A stretch of DNA of 64,000 bases, from positions 96,001 to 160,000 of the forward strand of contig CAWHCF010000050.1 in NCBI GenBank assembly GCA_963827655.1. Direction: 5' to 3'. Both the position numbers and the translations under genes were made by a program. Source of the DNA: an uncultured Acidobacteriota bacterium. Lineage in GTDB: Bacteria > Acidobacteriota > UBA6911. The notes under the pieces are model-generated. The model searched no databases. It saw only the letters and a program-made list of their open reading frames with translations, and had not been told where the DNA came from. Below are positions 31,901 to 39,065 of this stretch, piece by piece; positions within the stretch are counted from its first letter, which is position 1; each line of letters starts with the position of its first letter.

Positions 31901-32152
31901 ATTCCCTCCCGCATCGTGGCAATGCCTCAACTAAGGGTCAAAATACTGGCGAGAGATTGGCGAAGTCAAACAAAGAAAGGACGCCACGGTTCTCCGCGAC
32001 AACTTCACATTCTGGCGCGAGAGTTGGTGGTCAGTTTTTTGAATCGGATTTTCCGTTTGCCTTGGAGTGCGGCAGCTTGCTGAGCTTGCTACCGCCCCCA
32101 AGGCGCAAGTAAGTTCTTAACCTTACAAGCATCTCATCGGTCTCGGCGATTT

Positions 32153-32239
32153 CGCCCCGGAGGGGGCGACGGAAATTAGCCCCGTGGCAAGCGAAGCGCA
32201 GCCCGGGGTTAGGGGTTTATAGTTTGTGCGCCCTGAAGG
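32153..32239. repeat. Left half of the REP/REPIN-like multi-hairpin element hosting the IS110
   Basis: CGCCCCGGAGGGGGCG, GGAAATTAGCC, GCAAGCGAAGCGC; inverted counterparts at 33904-34022. Confidence 0.75.
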
Positions 32240-32251
32240 TCCTGTGTTGTG

Positions 32252-32257
32252 AGTCAA
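32252..32257 (-). promoter_or_regulatory. -35 box (TTGACT) of the IS110 circle-junction promoter
   Basis: Overlaps the transposase TGA; lies 17 bp from TATGAT (33893-33898) once the ends are joined. Confidence 0.8.
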
Positions 32258-33603
32258 GCAATTTTTTTTAGTTTGGGGTCCACTTTTTTCCACAGTGCAC
32301 GGTTGTCCTTGTGCTGACGAACAAAAGTTTTCCACAGGCCCGCGTGATGGATTCGGATCTGTTCAATCATTCGATTTACATCGTACATCTGGTTTCGGGC
32401 GACCAGTGCCCAGATGACATGGGCCATTCTGTTCATCTCAGCGCAGACGGCCTGCTGGGGACACAGGCCGCGCTGGATCATTCGCCACTTATGAAACGCA
32501 AAGGCGGGGTCAAAGTTGCAGGCGGTCTGCGTAACCAGATACAGCATAGCTCGTTGCTTGTGGTCGCCCCGGGCGGTCAGATGTGTTTTGTTAAGCGAAG
32601 TTCCCGTTTGGGTCCGCTCAGGACAACTGGCCCATTGAGCCGACAAAGCCTTGCCCGAAACGAACCGGGCGAGTCCCCGTGTGCCCAGCACCAGAGTGGC
32701 GGCAGAGACTATGGCGATGCCGGGGATACTGTCGAGCAGCTCGACCTGGCGCGCCGCAGACACGCCTTCTTCGGGTGTTTCGGTCTCGGCTTTCGCCTGT
32801 TGTACATAGGCAACCAGGGTCCGCTCTATATAGGCCAACCTCTTCTCCAGCAACTCGAGCTGAGCGAGCAGAAAAACCATGGCCTCGGCGTCATCGTCCT
32901 CGCCGGCGCTGGCTATCGACTGCTTAGCCAAGAGGATCAGTTGTTGAGCCCGTTCTACTCCGAGAGACCGACCCCGCCGCTCAGACTTCACTCGAGCCAA
33001 AGACAGGGCCTGGCGACGGGCCGCACGTCGTGCGGTGGGAATCTCACTCAACACCGCCCGAGCGAGCTTTGCGAACGGGTCGGCGAAAACCTGGGTGAAC
33101 TCTGGAAAGCACACCAGCACTTGCTCGTGAATCCGGTTTTTGGTTGCCGCCAGATCCTGGACCAAACGCTGACGTTCACTAATCACACGAGTCATCGCCT
33201 GGGCTTTGGGATCGTAATCGAAGGCCTCCAGCCGACGTTCGTATACCCGGGTAAACTCCGCCACATGATCGGAGTCGGACCCATCGGTTTGATCGCGGCG
33301 CGGGTTGGGACCTCCAAAGCGCGCGCTCTGGCCCGGATTGACCCGAATCAGCCTGATATTGCGATCCTGACAGGTCAACTTCCATTCTCCAAGCCAGGCG
33401 ATCAGGTTGTCGTCTATCCGTCCGCTGGCCTCGATTCCGATCGTGAGATCCCCCTCTGGCAAGACAGACTTCAGACTCTCGAATCCCTCGCGCGACATGT
33501 CAAACTGCCGTGCTTTCCAAACCCTTTCTCCGGTCGAATGCACCAGAGTTGCTGCAAAAAAAGACTTGCCTGGGTCAATGCCCAGCACGAAACTAGCTGT
33601 CAT
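32254..33603 (-). CDS. IS110-family DEDD recombinase/transposase (449 aa)
   Basis: LGIDPGK, GIEASG, VNP, QTDGSD (DEDD); LLDSIPGI and PERTQTG (Tnp20 domain); AGGAGG RBS at 33610-33615. Confidence 0.93.
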   Translation of the reverse strand: MTASFVLGIDPGKSFFAATLVHSTGERVWKARQFDMSREGFESLKSVLPEGDLTIGIEASGRIDDNLIAWLGEWKLTCQDRNIRLIRVNPGQSARFGGPNPRRDQTDGSDSDHVAEFTRVYERRLEAFDYDPKAQAMTRVISERQRLVQDLAATKNRIHEQVLVCFPEFTQVFADPFAKLARAVLSEIPTARRAARRQALSLARVKSERRGRSLGVERAQQLILLAKQSIASAGEDDDAEAMVFLLAQLELLEKRLAYIERTLVAYVQQAKAETETPEEGVSAARQVELLDSIPGIAIVSAATLVLGTRGLARFVSGKALSAQWASCPERTQTGTSLNKTHLTARGDHKQRAMLYLVTQTACNFDPAFAFHKWRMIQRGLCPQQAVCAEMNRMAHVIWALVARNQMYDVNRMIEQIRIHHAGLWKTFVRQHKDNRALWKKVDPKLKKIA

Positions 33604-33627
33604 GGGAGCCCTCCTTGGGTTATCCCG

Positions 33628-33886
33628 CATCCGGGTCTCTCACCCTTGCGGCGATCCGCCTTAGTCAAGCGCGGTCCTGTACGAGATGAACCCGGTCTAC
33701 GGGCGGAAGAGCGACCTTCAGGACGAGCTCGAGGCTCACGGGGCGCACGCTTTCTTCCGCCCGTATTCTTTTGCGGACTTAAAATGATCCCACGGATTTC
33801 CACATTTCCACAGCAATTCACAAAGAGAAAGAAGCAAAGAGAAAGCTACTACTACTACTATTGATATTCTTACTTAATTGGGTGCC
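33628..33886 (-). ncRNA. Predicted IS110 bridge RNA (structured core 33631-33765; 5' end inferred from the promoter)
   Basis: Perfect 13-bp stem 33698-33710/33753-33765 encloses target-matching guides; second stem 33631-33641/33683-33695 encloses donor-matching guides. Confidence 0.85.
33796..33880 (+). other. oriC-like module: DnaA-box-like 9-mers + (CTA)5 trio-like run + AT-rich tract
   Basis: ATTTCCACA x2 (33796-33812), AATTCACA, purine spacer, CTA x5 (33846-33860), then TTGATATTCTTACTTAATT. Confidence 0.45.
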
Positions 33887-33892
33887 ACAATG

Positions 33893-33898
33893 ATCATA
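33893..33898 (-). promoter_or_regulatory. -10 box (TATGAT) of the IS110 circle-junction promoter
   Basis: Junction reads TTGACT-cacaacacagga-cctt-g-TATGAT (17-bp spacer). Confidence 0.8.
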
Positions 33899-33903
33899 CA
33901 AGG

Positions 33904-34022
33904 GGCGCCGGAGCATTGAGGGCCGTGTCCAGCGCCCCTCCGGGACGCGTCTCTTCGCGTGTCTGTGACCGGGGGCAGCGCTCCGCTTGCCCCCGGCTAA
34001 TTTCCTTCGCCCTTTCAGGGCG
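33904..34022. repeat. Right half of the REP/REPIN-like host element
   Basis: CGCCCCTCCGGGACG, CCGGGGGCAGCGCTCCGCTTGCCCCCGG, GGCTAATTTCC, CGCCCTTTCAGGGCG. Confidence 0.75.
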
Positions 34023-34109
34023 CGAGCTGGCGTAACCGTTCGTTCTGGACCAATACAAGATGCGTGTAAGGTTCAGAGCAAGCGTGCGCACTCCAAACCA
34101 ACACGAGCA

Positions 34110-37100
34110 CTAAGGCCACCAGCGCGTTGCGTCCTGCACCGAGGAATACGCCTCGGCCACCGCTTCCGCGCCTCCAACTGCGGCCAGCGCGCCGGCTGCA
34201 TTCGCCAGCACGGCGCAGATGTCCTTGCGAGTGCCCGTAGGAAGTCTGGTTATTGCCTGAGAGAACCAATCACCCCAGAACGGATAGAGACGGGCCGGGA
34301 GAAGTTCGAGTTTTGCCAGCCATTCGATCAACGGCGGACTGCTCTTGTGCAAAGAAAAGACGTCTTCGAGCAGAGCATCCGATAAGAATGGACTTAGCAG
34401 GTCGATCACGCGAATTGGATCATCGATCGCCAGCACGGCTTCCCGGGCGACTTCCTCTCGTAACGGAGTCGCCAACCGCGCGGCCAGGGCGGCCAGCGCC
34501 TCGGCGCGGCGCGGCTTGAAATCAATCTCACGAGCGACAGTGAGCGCCTCGGGAAGTAACTCCTCCGGGAGACGCGGCGCCAAAGACTTCAGCGCTTCGT
34601 AACGTTCGAACAGGGGGATCTTGCGGGTCATCGCGAGCGCCTCAGGCAGCAGAGCCGCCGGAATATGAGGCGCCAGGTGTGTTAGATTCCAGCTCACGTA
34701 AGGAGATTGCTCTACCAGCTCGAGCGCCTTGGGAACGGCCTCTCTCTTAGCGTCCTCCGGCAGGTTGGGAATCAGTTCCACCAGGGTGTGGAGGCGGTCG
34801 TGCTCATAATCGATTCCGAGCGCGAGAGAAAGGGCTTCGCGGGCAACAGCGGAAAGGAGCCTCGCCTTGGAGGCACTGCAACAGGTACTGCAAAGCCGGC
34901 AACCGGTTTGCCTCCTGCAATTCGGCGGCATGCTTTTCGCGCCTCCTGGATGCAACTATTTCGGCGCACTCCAGACAACCGGGGAATAACGCTCCCGCAA
35001 TACCTGGCACCTTTCCCAGGAATCTTCAAATTCATTCGCAGCCCGAAGAAATTCGTCGATCAGCGATTCTGGAACGCTCCTGGCCAGATGGGCCAAAGCC
35101 CTGGCCCGCACGTCCAGGAATTTGATCGATCGAGCGCGGGCCAGCGCCTGTGCGAAAAGGGGTGCGGGCAACCGCGGCGCGAGGTGCTGCAGCACCGTTA
35201 CCTGATCGTCGGTGTGATGTTCCAGCACGGCAGCGAGTGCCTCTCCCAGCAGCCTTGCCGGAAGATAGGGCGCCAGCGCGATCATGGAGTTGACCCGATC
35301 GCGCGAGTAGATCGAGAGTTCCCGCACCGCGGCCAGCGCTTCGTCGAACAGATGATCCGGGAGATGCGGGGCAAGGACGGCTAATATTTTCGCTCGCTCT
35401 CGGAAGTCCGGCGTTTTGCGCATCTGCGCGAGCGCCTCGGCCAGGGCTCGCTCGCGCGATTCACCGGGAAGGTGAAGAGCCAGGCTCCATAGGACCTGTT
35501 CGCATTCGTATCGATCTCCGACTTCGCGGCGCGCGTCTACCGTCTCGCGCAGCACTTGCTTGGTCTCGCCCTCAGGCAGGTAGGGCACAAGGTCAAACAG
35601 TGCTTCCGAGCGCTTCCACCCGAAGCCCACGCCGATCGAGCGCGCCACCTTCAACGCCTCGCGGAGGAGATCATCCCGGAATGGGCCTGTGGCGCGTTTG
35701 ATGAAGCTCGCCAGCGCGGTGACTCGATAGCCGGCGTCTTCGATCCTGCCGGTCACTGCCACGGCTTTCGGGAGGAATTCTTGCGGGAGGCACTCGGCTA
35801 TTTCGGTCAGGGTGGTCGATCGCCTCAGCTCGTCGTCAATTCGCTCAACCGCCGACAGCGCTCGACGCGCGGCTCGCGACCGGATACTTCCGGTGAGATG
35901 AGGGGCAAGCCGCGCCAGCAACTTGGCGCAATCATCCTGGTCCTGAACGGCTGATGCCGCGGCTACGGCCTCGCGCCGGGCGCCGGGCGCGAGATACGGC
36001 GCAAGTTCGACGAAAATGTCGGCGCGCCGCCACTCGTTGATCTTGTTCTCGAAATGCTCTGCATCTCTCAGCCGCCGGCGCAGAATCGTTCCCCCCAGGA
36101 ATGCAGGCCAGTGAGGCGCCAGGGCTGAAGCCAGTCTGGACCGAAACACAACCGGGATCGAGCGAGCCGCTCGAACGGCTTCCTGAATCACTTGCTCTTT
36201 CGCTGTTTCGGGCAGGCGGGGAATCAAGGATACGAGCAGAGTGCCACGGGAATAGCCATCTGCCTGGCGTAGATGATGCCAGCGACGTACACGCAACTGG
36301 CGCGCGATCTCCAGGATGCTCGAGAGCAGCGATTCCGGCACGAAAGGAACCAGATGTTTCAAAGCGCCGGGAAGCTCAACTGCGCTTGAAAGAGCCCTTT
36401 CCATCAACGACTCGGGCAGCGAGGGGGCTAGAGCCGCGAGCGCCTTGCCCCGGTAATAGTTATCCAGGACGCCGATTCTCTCGATCGCCTCTCCAAGACA
36501 TGATTCGGGCAGATAGGGCGTCAAAGCGGTGAGAGTATTGACGCAAGTATCAGGATCGCGAATGGTCCAAACGAACTGCGAGGCTTCCCGAACCAGTGAA
36601 TCCGGGAGCTGGGGGGCTAGTTCCCGCATCGCTTCGGCTACTTTCGTTGAATATCTGTAGTCGGTGGTTTCCCGCAAGGCGGTGAGCGCCTCTTGAAGAA
36701 CCTCTTGCTTCCGTTCGCCTGTGGCATGTCGTGCCAGGGCGCTCAGGGCCTTGCATCGGTCATCGGGAGAAGAGACCCTTCGTGCTACCCCCAGCGCCTC
36801 CCGCAGCACATCGTCTTTGAAATCCGGCGGCACATACGGGAAAAGCGCCGCCAGCCCCATGGAACTGACATCTGCATATCTGGCGTTTCGAGCGTAGGCC
36901 AGCGCCTGCTCCCATGACCAGACTCCGTGTTTGACCAGGGCCTCCAGGAGCGGTGGTTCGATATGCCAGGCCAGACTTCTGAGCGAGGCGGCAATGATGG
37001 CGTACCGGACTTCGAGTCCTATGCTGGCGGGGATTTTCCCCTGACGTCCCTCCCCGGCCGACATCCGCTCGCTCATGGCCCGCGCACGGCTGAGATCGCT

Positions 37101-39065
37101 CAGATATCCCGACGTATCGCCGGCCTGTTCGCGTGCGGCGAACCAGGCGTTCACGGCCTGAGGCCCGAAAGCTTTGTCCTGCTCGGGCCATTCCACCTGG
37201 AAGAGAGCCCGCACATCCCGTTCCCGGCCGGCGCCCTCCAGGTGAGTCACAAGGTGCCGAAGCCCATAGCGCTCGTCCAGCTGGACGGACGTGGTCTCCC
37301 TCAAATTGGGCAACCCGGCCGCAAGTCCTCCCCAGGCGTTGATGTATCGGTCGGCAAAGCGCGAATGCGCGCTGCGTGTGGCTTCGGCGATTTCTGTCGC
37401 GAAGCGACGCTCGCCGCTTGTCATTTCACTTGCATCCGCCCTTCCATCCAGGAATTCTCGCAGACTGGCATGGTGGAGGCGGTATCGAGGCTCGGGGCCC
37501 TCGCTAACCGTGACAAATGCGATCCAAGCCTGTTCCAGGAGCCGCCGTGCTGCGGGCTCAGCCGTCACGCCGGAAACGGAACAGAGGAACTTCAGGGAAC
37601 AGTCTTCCTGGGCGGCGGCCAGGCTGGTGAGCAGCGGCAGTTGGATCGCGTCCCACTCGTCGGCGTGCTCTCTTCGCCATCGCTGCCAGTAGCGGGCATA
37701 GTACTGCCACACCCCCTGAGGCAAGGTTTCGAGTTCCAGCGGAGACCGTTCGCCGCTTTCGATTTCGCCGACAACGTAGTGCAGATAGATCCATACACCG
37801 CGAGATTTATCGAGTAGTTTCTCGACGAAGCGATCCGGCGAAAATTCGCTTTTTCTGAGCGCCTGGGAAATTTTCTCCAGCCCGGCCGTGCGCTCCACAT
37901 AAGCGCGCATGTCAGCCAGGTTGTTGGCATCCCCGGCTTCCAGTGTTACAACTCGGCGCGAAGTATCGACCATTAGCGAAACCTCCACCGGCCTCTGGGA
38001 AACCAGGAAATAGACACCTTCCGGCACCACCCCTGGCAACCCCAGGACGTTTTGTCCTGGAGGCGTGCCCGCCTCATCGAGCGCATCGACGACGACGACA
38101 ATCTTCTCGCCTGGAGCCACTTCGTCTCGTTTGCGGGCGGCCTCAACCAGCAACGTCTGCAGGTAGTCGGGACGCGTGGCAGCTCCTGGCAGCACCTCAT
38201 CGAGGCCGTAAGGATTCAGCTTCCACGAGCGAATCAGCTGAGCCGCCAGATTCTTGAGTCCCGGTCCAATTCCATCGGCGCCGGGGGCCAGTTCGACAAA
38301 GTGGTGAATGTATCCGCGCTCCTTTACCAGATAAGCGAGCAGGGCTGTCTTGCCCAAACCCGCTTTGGCTTCGAGCACAAAATAACCGGAGGAACTCTCG
38401 GAGAGAAACGTATCGAACTGGCGGGTCAACCATTCGCGGCCGACGAAGCGGTCGAGCCGCACCCTTCGGAATACCGACCACGGCTGAATGTAAGCATCGC
38501 GCAGCCGCTGGTAATCGCCAACAAACACCTGATTGTGGCTTCCGGAGACGACCACACTGCGGATGACCTCGCCTCCGACTCCTATCTGCGCCACCAACCA
38601 GTTGTGCAGGTCTGCGGTGATTTTGGCCGCAAGCTCATGCGGATTGCTGAATTCGGTGACCGTGTGGCGGTCCGGTGCCCGCAGCTCCTGTTTAAGCGCG
38701 GTCAGCCGCGCCGATTTATCAGGGTCGGTTTCGCGCCAGGATGGGTCGATGGCCGATTCGGCTTTGAAATAAATGAAGCAGGGCAGGCCGCGCTCCTGGG
38801 CGCGCCGGTACTCTCGCTCGGTGATGCCCGAACCGTAGCGGCCTCCGAAAATGCCGATGTAAACCTGGCTTCGGTCTACTTCGTCGAGCGATGCCACTTC
38901 GGTCGTTTCATCGCGGCTGCCGAAATACTCCATGCCGACGAACTTGGTGTCTCTCATGCGCTGGAGCGAAGCCTCCACGGCCTCGCGCTCGGGCTTCAGG
39001 TCGAGCGAGGTCGAACTCACAAATACCGCTACCGTTACCGCAGGTCGGGGAGGCATGGGGCGCAT
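34110..39065 (-). CDS. DUF4062 + STAND/NACHT-like NTPase + helical repeat protein (about 1650 aa), with several frameshifts at about 34860-35000
   Basis: VFVSSTSLDL...GGRYGS..TEREY (DUF4062); AKAGLGKT, VVVDALDE; repeated AL..LAP.LP units continue into the 34110-34955 ORF. Confidence 0.85.

Follow-up and report, generated by a model that had tools for sequence, protein, structure and literature searches.

Bridge RNAs of IS110-family insertion sequences were published in 2024, together with thousands of predicted orthologues (PMC11208160; PMC11208158). As described in the text of these two papers, IS621 encodes a recombinase with a DEDD and a Tnp domain, and its left end is long, its right end very short. 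Its RNA consists of a 5' hairpin followed by a target-binding and a donor-binding stem-loop, both with internal loops, in which the 5' side of the loop recognises the DNA's bottom strand and the 3' side the top strand. The CT core occupies positions 8-9, two handshake bases lie 3' of each right guide, a junction promoter spans the core, and the target lies in a repeated palindrome. All of these features have counterparts in an element found in a 64,000-nucleotide stretch of an uncultured Acidobacteriota bacterium (assembly GCA_963827655.1, contig CAWHCF010000050.1, positions 96,001 to 160,000), hereafter called the window. The element, at 32237-33902, is an intact, recently active insertion sequence of the IS110 group, and its left end very probably encodes a bridge RNA on the IS621 plan, with a CT core at positions 8-9. 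This reading draws on the anatomy of the sequence, its conservation, the covariation of guides with flanks and of paired bases with each other, and the fold of the recombinase. IS621 has been tested experimentally, whereas the element described here is known from its sequence.

Other described systems share part of this plan. ISCro4, or IS622 (PDB 9t56), gives the best sequence and fold match in the PDB and is as distant from the present element as IS621. In the available descriptions, ISPpu10 and ISPpu9 of Pseudomonas putida are IS110 elements that insert in copies of one conserved intergenic or repetitive extragenic palindromic (REP) stem-loop sequence, as the element in the window does. The stem-loop of ISPpu10 is, however, a 5' extension beside the guided site, whereas here the guided site spans the 5' arm and the loop of the hairpin. 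IS1111-type seekRNA elements are also RNA-guided DEDD transposases with naturally reprogrammed target-matching segments. As far as their published account goes (PMC11187229), their non-coding region lies downstream of the gene and the target-matching regions come in reverse order, whereas the RNA considered here lies upstream, as is typical of IS110.

The element and its gene are placed as follows.

32237-33902, minus strand: IS110-family insertion sequence; the span takes in both copies of the CT core, and the junctions were read directly.
32254-33603, minus strand: recombinase gene, 449 amino acids plus stop; DEDD RuvC-like and Tnp domains, with D10, E58, D107, D110 and T333-G334.

The copies of the CT core lie at 32237-32238 and 33901-33902, so that a unique part of 1,662 bp (32239-33900) and one core give an element of 1,664 bp. 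On the plus strand, the junctions read ...GCGCCCTGAAGG|TCCTGTG... at 32239|32240 and ...ATACAAGG|GGCGCC... at 33903|33904. The long non-coding left end, the short right end, the lack of terminal inverted repeats and the 2-nt core at both junctions are those of the IS110 group. The left end measures 300 nt (33604-33903), against 191 in the published account of IS621, and contains an additional conserved CT-rich block and a (TAG)n run, while the right end extends 14 nt past the stop codon. These ends are kept across 33 related loci. Another contig of the same genome (G000:C53) carries a second copy of the element, 100% identical over 1,663 nt and inserted at an identical 18-nt site. To the left of the two copies the flanking DNA is alike for 138 nt (92.8%), to the right for 177 nt (97.2%); further out there is no relationship. 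Since the likeness ends after these distances, the copies are separate insertions into different members of one repeat family, and duplication of a segment does not account for them.

In the numbering of IS621, which is followed here, positions 8-9 are the core and top-strand cleavage follows position 9. In the sense of the recombinase gene, the target in the window reads GGCGCCC-CT-TCAGG and the donor formed by the joined ends reads ACAGGAC-CT-TGTAT. The parts of the putative bridge RNA are these.

33698-33765, minus strand: target-binding stem-loop; 13-bp outer stem, 3-bp extension and inner hairpin at 33724-33738, based on sequence, covariation and fold.
33739-33747, minus strand: left target guide, on the 5' side of the loop, for target positions 1-9; in this copy the match to the flank covers positions 3-8, and G stands against T at position 9.
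33714-33722, minus strand: right target guide; guide at 33718-33722 (positions 14-10), core-facing A-G at 33716-33717, handshake G-U at 33714-33715.
33631-33695, minus strand: donor-binding stem-loop; outer interrupted stem of 33682-33695 with 33631-33642, based on RNAalifold, pair counts and single-sequence fold.
33673-33680, minus strand: left donor guide ACAGGACC, in the same sense as donor positions 1-8 (right-end terminus and C8).
33643-33649, minus strand: right donor guide GCA; guide at 33647-33649 (G.T wobble at position 12), core-facing A-G at 33645-33646, handshake G-G at 33643-33644.

An earlier, sequence-only reading of this DNA had described a two-loop bridge RNA in the long non-coding left end of an IS110 element, a description that agrees with the Pfam domains of the recombinase, the conserved stem-loops and the guide/flank covariation. 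Every string that it listed was found in place. The target stem, TACGGGCGGAAGA at 33698-33710 with TCTTCCGCCCGTA at 33753-33765, is a perfect 13-bp helix around the loop segments CCTTCAGG (33715-33722) and GGGGCGC (33740-33746). The donor stem, CCGGGTCTCTC at 33631-33641 with GAGATGAACCCGG at 33683-33695, encloses CCTTG (33644-33648) and GGTCCTGT (33673-33680). According to the plan of IS621, the 5' side of the target loop would read the bottom strand of target positions 3-9 and the 3' side the top strand of positions 14-10, followed by the core C8-T9, with its last two bases, G-U, forming a handshake to donor C7-A6. The donor loop would likewise read the joined element ends ACAGGAC-CT-TGTAT, with a handshake G-G to target C7-C6, and recombination would take place at the CT core as in IS621. 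We infer from this anatomy that the RNA is made, bound by the recombinase and used in this manner. The natural target would lie in a dispersed intergenic repeat, where it would take up the loop and the 5' arm of the central hairpin.

Part of the decisive comparative evidence comes from the guides and flanks of related loci. A profile scan of metagenome contigs returned 42 loci, 33 of them with a left end, and these were aligned with that of the window (34 left ends); the guide/flank sample comprised 31 distinct combinations, a left flank being available for 29 of them and a right flank for 27. At positions 3-9, the left guide matches the left flank in 26, 24, 28, 29, 28, 21 and 26 of the 29 cases, and at positions 10-14 the right guide matches the right flank in 25, 27, 26, 27 and 27 of the 27. 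Outside the guides matches are few (8/29 at position 1, 9/29 at position 2 and 1/27 at position 15). When the guides were dealt at random among the loci, none of 10,000 shuffles reached the observed totals, which were 199 of 261 matches on the left and 151 of 189 on the right, against shuffled means of 166.6 and 116.7. Positions that vary are matched all the same, as seen at position 6 (29/29; C 22, G 7) and position 14 (27/27; G 22, C 4, A 1), as well as at positions 12 (26/27) and 10 (25/27). The existence of many states at positions 6, 10, 12 and 14, each of them matched by the flank, is independent of kinship among the loci.

Over the 12 guided positions, the 28 loci with both flanks present no mismatch in 12 cases, one in 10, two in five and four in one. 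There are 16 distinct guide pairs among the 34 loci, and they track the flanks, so that homologues at different targets do not keep identical loop sequences. The target loop has been reprogrammed naturally in this system, whose recombinase the sequence-only reading had called programmable, and the guide/target covariation among homologues that it had named as a check is present on both sides. That reading had also matched the guides to the element's own target, and the empty 18-mer is indeed found uninterrupted twice in the genome. Unlike the target guides, those for the donor (ACAGGACC and GCAAG) are nearly constant, and so are the element ends; of the 34 aligned loci, 32 share the same left donor guide and only L026 and L041 depart from it. 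That the first loop varies and the second is conserved is likewise described in the text of the IS621 papers (PMC11208160; PMC11208158). An extended, discontinuous right donor guide, in which GAUC would face GATC of the left end, was considered and dropped: the RNA stays the same where the left end has GCTC or GTTC instead, and the extended guide thus has no covariation.

Covariation is also found within the stems. A consensus fold made from 24 non-redundant sequences (alignment A3) recovered both stem-loops, the donor stem being interrupted (7 + 5 bp) and followed by an internal loop and a variable inner hairpin. The target stem (helix 1) has 16 pairs, six of them changed on both sides, and the donor stem (helix 3) has 12 pairs, five changed on both sides; in each, 99% of the alignment cells are paired. 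In the cleaned consensus structure as a whole, 99.0% of the cells are paired and 12 of the 36 pairs have changed on both sides, against 2.1 in shuffles (none of 500 attains 12) and 0-4 after the partners had been shifted by one to three columns. As a single sequence, the 143-nt segment 33628-33770 (minus strand) folds at -60.3 kcal/mol, compared with -52.4 +/- 3.8 for shuffled versions (z -2.09; 3/200 as good), and forms both stem-loops. The decisive support for the predicted bridge RNA is the comparative evidence. Upstream of the target stem-loop, a variable 5' hairpin at about 33771-33796 is the counterpart of the 5' stem-loop of IS621. Columns 102 and 124 of the alignment (33671 and 33656), in the donor loop, vary jointly and form no standard pairs (C-G 13, U-U 7, U-C 2, C-U 1, A-A 1), a pattern that may reflect a tertiary or protein contact.

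With regard to the core, the sequence common to both junctions in this copy is CCTT, into which CC, CT and TT all fit. The family of related loci is more informative. T9 is invariant in 29/29 left and 27/27 right junctions, and in 26/29 loci position 9 of the left target guide is U. At position 8 the left junction varies (19 loci with C, eight with T and two with A), mostly in line with the left guide. Both right guides always present A-G opposite C8-T9, followed by exactly two bases before the stem, which is the place of the handshake in IS621. The target-loop handshake G-U is complementary to donor C7-A6 in 33/34 loci, and the donor-loop handshake G-G is complementary to target C7-C6; where the target has G6, the second base of the latter is C in five of eight loci, and where it has C6, in none of 24. 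For IS621, an almost invariant T9 and a less conserved C8 are reported in the text of the two papers (PMC11208160; PMC11208158). The family data, together with the published IS621 numbering, favour a core at C8-T9, which would put CC (positions 7-8) one base out of register. At the donor positions consistently named in that text, the element equals IS621 at six of seven (1, 6, 8, 9, 12 and 14); position 7 is T in IS621 and C here, and the target-loop handshake differs in step, with A81 in IS621 and G here. Crossover would be expected at the CT core, with C7 additionally common to target and donor. The sharing of C7-C8-T9 by target and donor, as well as the five guided bases of the right target guide, differ from the published description of IS621.

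With U in the left guide at core position 8, the left junction shows T in some loci and C in others (in one case A), and the right junction is C throughout. This was seen by comparing L018, L020, L027 and L029-L032 with L009, L011, L012, L015, L017, L025, L035 and L039, and it fits either a U.G wobble or the segregation of a core mismatch.

The sequence-only reading had proposed a CC core in place of the CT core of IS621, on the grounds that all four guide segments overlap on CC. The overlap is real in this copy, although it is found only here and only if a handshake nucleotide is counted in the right guides. The same bridge RNA with a crossover at CC would be in keeping with a C7 that is invariant in targets (29/29) and donors, with C8 as the commonest base of its position (19/29), and with 5' guides that in this copy pair through C8 and mismatch at T9. 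This copy alone leaves the register within CCTT undecided, and the family speaks against CC: the left-junction position 8 is T or A in 10 of 29 loci whereas T9 never varies, position 9 of the left guide is U in 26 of 29, and an invariant A stands opposite T9 in both right guides. In addition, the two stem-adjacent bases of both loops sit at the handshake place of IS621 and match the non-cognate DNA, and the donor aligns base for base with the published positions of IS621, with CT at C8-T9. A CC crossover is therefore unlikely; it seems to have been suggested by this copy because C7 is common to target and donor and because position 9 of its left guide is G instead of U.

A core at TT (positions 9-10) would also be compatible with the CCTT overlap. 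Left junctions always read TT-GTATG (29/29), and targets of the type TCGCCCT-TT-CAGGG need no mismatch in this register. However, position 10 of the right junction is C or G in nine of 27 loci and is set by the right guide (25/27 matches), as L015, L023, L024, L027-L032, L035 and L038 demonstrate. Being specified by the guide, position 10 belongs to the target sequence and is not common to the donor, which leaves TT with hardly any probability. Equally improbable is a structured 5' leader that merely regulates translation or transcription of the recombinase, the apparent matches being side effects of a palindromic target and conserved ends. The second stem-loop does end 27 nt ahead of the start codon and is followed by a conserved ribosome-binding region, a palindromic target does raise the chance of matches, and the ends of the RNA are deduced from its sequence. 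Such a leader would nevertheless not predict that loop bases covary with DNA outside the element, at seven left-guide and five right-guide positions and not at their neighbours, nor that a donor-loop base tracks target position 6.

Several observations weigh against the bridge RNA with a CT core or temper the evidence for it. Its existence with these ends and on this strand is a prediction from the sequence. The RNA has no Rfam family (32000-34200 at an expectation value (E) of up to 10; the whole window at gathering score), so that no independent curated model is at hand, yet this is not evidence against the RNA. The whole 302-nt left end, unlike the 143-nt segment, is no stabler than shuffles (z 0.11; 56/100 as good), and its minimum-energy fold misses the second stem. 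A scan of the integrated left end (33560-33960) for consensus promoters and terminators gave 0 sites. Contigs from four RNA libraries (four studies) cover 33606-33845, but they carry no information on strand, ends or level and may be of DNA origin. The loci are related, so the shuffle counts overstate significance; copies of one element are represented by L008-L010, by L013-L014, and by L027-L031 with L038. Locus L008 carries four guide mismatches. In this copy T9 faces a G in the left target guide, and at position 9 of the left donor guide all loci but the divergent L040 and L041 have G; because of these G residues, the core is not fully paired on the 5' sides. Finally, C7 is invariant in targets as well, and sequence does not fix the cleavage sites, for which reason a small share of the probability is kept for a crossover at positions 7-8.

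The bridge RNA read here with a CT core is nonetheless very probably genuine, and it is unusually clean, of a kind known since 2024; the claimed CC core is not supported. A further natural bridge RNA comes as no surprise, given a published class with thousands of predicted orthologues. Its value lies in a fully decodable family with 16 natural guide pairs, which independently recovers the rules of IS621: the guide lengths, the tolerant first core base, the invariant T9 and the handshake, including a donor-loop base that tracks the target.

The recombinase had been described as divergent, and its sequence and fold agree. Pfam assigns PF01548 (E 9.1e-19, 68.2 bits against a cut-off of 29) and PF02371 (E 2.6e-11), whereas the NCBIfam model of IS110 family RNA-guided transposases, NF033542, scores 128.7 bits against a cut-off of 140 over profile positions 1-342 of 343, which makes the protein a divergent relative and not an equivalog by the NCBI threshold. 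The ATG of the gene is preceded by a conserved GGAGG. Of 105 aligned rows, 98 retain D10, E58, D107 and D110, and the others are truncated. Against PDB chains, the profile of the clade matches ISCro4 at E 6e-22 and IS621 at E 2e-21. The AlphaFold 2 model has a mean predicted local distance difference test (pLDDT) score of 85.3 and a predicted template modelling (pTM) score of 0.77. Its ten best fold matches in the PDB are chains of IS621 and ISCro4 synaptic complexes (E 4e-11 to 2e-9, target-normalised template modelling (TM) scores of 0.67-0.72, 16-18% identity), followed by Nop5-type proteins, as the literature would lead one to expect. With 449 amino acids compared with 326, the recombinase is longer than that of IS621, with which it shares about 17% identity in the fold alignment.

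The Tnp domain of IS621 has a highly conserved catalytic serine, S241-G242, according to the text of the two papers (PMC11208160; PMC11208158). In the profile alignment, with the numbering anchored on D11 and the same spacing from a conserved proline, S241-G242 aligns with T333-G334, so that the place of S241 is taken by a threonine, the codon of which lies at 32605-32607 (minus strand). The comparison covers proteins P0001-P0087 and P0105-P0125. All relatives with at least 41% identity carry T-G-x-S. Among 137 aligned representatives of at least 300 amino acids, drawn from the 150 best matches listed in a 50%-identity library, the 16 nearest have T-G, while 117 have S-G, two S-A, one F-G and one a gap. 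S336 is absent from two threonine-bearing representatives and is therefore not a general substitute. As the elements are clearly mobile, the threonine in the place of the catalytic serine probably serves as the nucleophile. The word "threonine" is absent from PMC11208160, PMC11187229 and 10.1101/2024.06.21.599552 in a word search of the texts at hand, and the supplementary orthologue tables may already list the clade or threonine variants.

A more tentative proposal, to which we give somewhat less than an even chance, joins two features: that the soil clade uses T333 as its DNA-linking nucleophile, and that target and donor share three bases, C7-C8-T9, instead of two. If this is true, the cut sites of IS621 would leave one mismatched base in the four-base staggered region, which would make for a tidier strand exchange, and the clade would provide a natural, working threonine variant of the bridge mechanism. 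The proteins of this clade are far from the enzymes studied so far, larger, and apparently have a threonine at the nucleophile position. They could represent a mechanistic variant and possibly a new scaffold for engineering.

The recombinase has 104 matches in a large protein collection, 87 of them at 41-98% identity and nearly all on contigs of 1.4-4 kb. In reference genomes, a single-protein scan found no close relative, and the profile scan gave one partial match at 38% (L005). Among 51 genomes of the same family, only the window's own genome matched at E 1e-20. Of plasmids, 252 records matched, all below 60% identity and the best at 27.6%, hence with no close relative.

As for expression, IS110 elements have a junction promoter that forms across the joined ends (text of PMC11208160; PMC11208158), and its two halves can be recognised here.

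32252-32257, minus strand: -35 box TTGACT, at the right end, overlapping the recombinase stop codon TGA (32254-32256).
33893-33898, minus strand: -10 box TATGAT, at the terminus of the left end; together with the right-end -35 box it would form a promoter only in the excised circle.

In the circle, TTGACT and TATGAT would be 17 nt apart, forming a candidate sigma-70-type promoter across the junction of the right and left ends. The right-end hexamer begins with TTGAC in 28 of 35 tails and is TTGACA in 19. The RNA is thus probably transcribed from a promoter that is present only in the excised circle. The A-tract ahead of the -35 box codes for C-terminal lysines of the recombinase.

Between the junction promoter and the 5' hairpin lies a further conserved part of the left end.

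33797-33861, minus strand: conserved left-end block, from 34 left ends; a CT-rich/GTGGAAA part (33797-33845) that is nearly invariant, and a (TAG)n microsatellite (33846-33861).

The CT-rich/GTGGAAA part, of some 50 nt, remains nearly invariant down to 60% protein identity, and inspection of the block by eye for a sigma-70 promoter revealed none that was convincing. Two of the RNA-library contigs stop at 33845/33849, at the (TAG)n run. A transcript start at this place was not accepted, since the run breaks assemblies and varies in length; in two RNA-library contigs, its length differs at 33846.

The insertion site lies in an intergenic repeat that is dispersed and palindromic, measures about 290 bp and contains several hairpins; the genome has 33 high-scoring segment pairs of it of at least 150 nt. 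The halves of the repeat flank the element.

32100-32236, strand not assigned: left half of the target repeat; one arm, with a weak Acido-Lenti-1 match of 18.0 bits (gathering score 37).
33903-34080, strand not assigned: right half of the target repeat; Acido-Lenti-1 match of 24.2 bits at 33983-34022 (gathering score 37).

The element sits in the central hairpin of this repeat, and the guided bases span the 5' arm and the loop of the hairpin. The empty target that was reconstructed does exist in this genome: there are two uninterrupted copies of the 18-mer, 10 of its 14-nt centre and 14 of the 12 guided bases. With 14 vacant and two occupied sites in one genome, the dispersed hairpin repeat offers the element a safe landing site. 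A contig of one RNA library joins 32239 straight to the right flank of a paralogous repeat, although it was placed at 90% likeness and lends weak support. Other contigs from RNA libraries cover parts of the repeat. Both arms stay below the gathering threshold of the Rfam family Acido-Lenti-1 (RF01687; 24.2 and 18.0 bits against 37), and their weak matches run in opposite orientations. Further members of the repeat are found in the same genome at C8:224335-224608, at C23:218597-218916 and in about 30 more places.

Adjoining the element are two open reading frames on the minus strand, of 281 (34110-34955) and 1,369 amino acids (34956-39065), both of which contain runs of the repeat 'LAP.LPE..L.EAL'.

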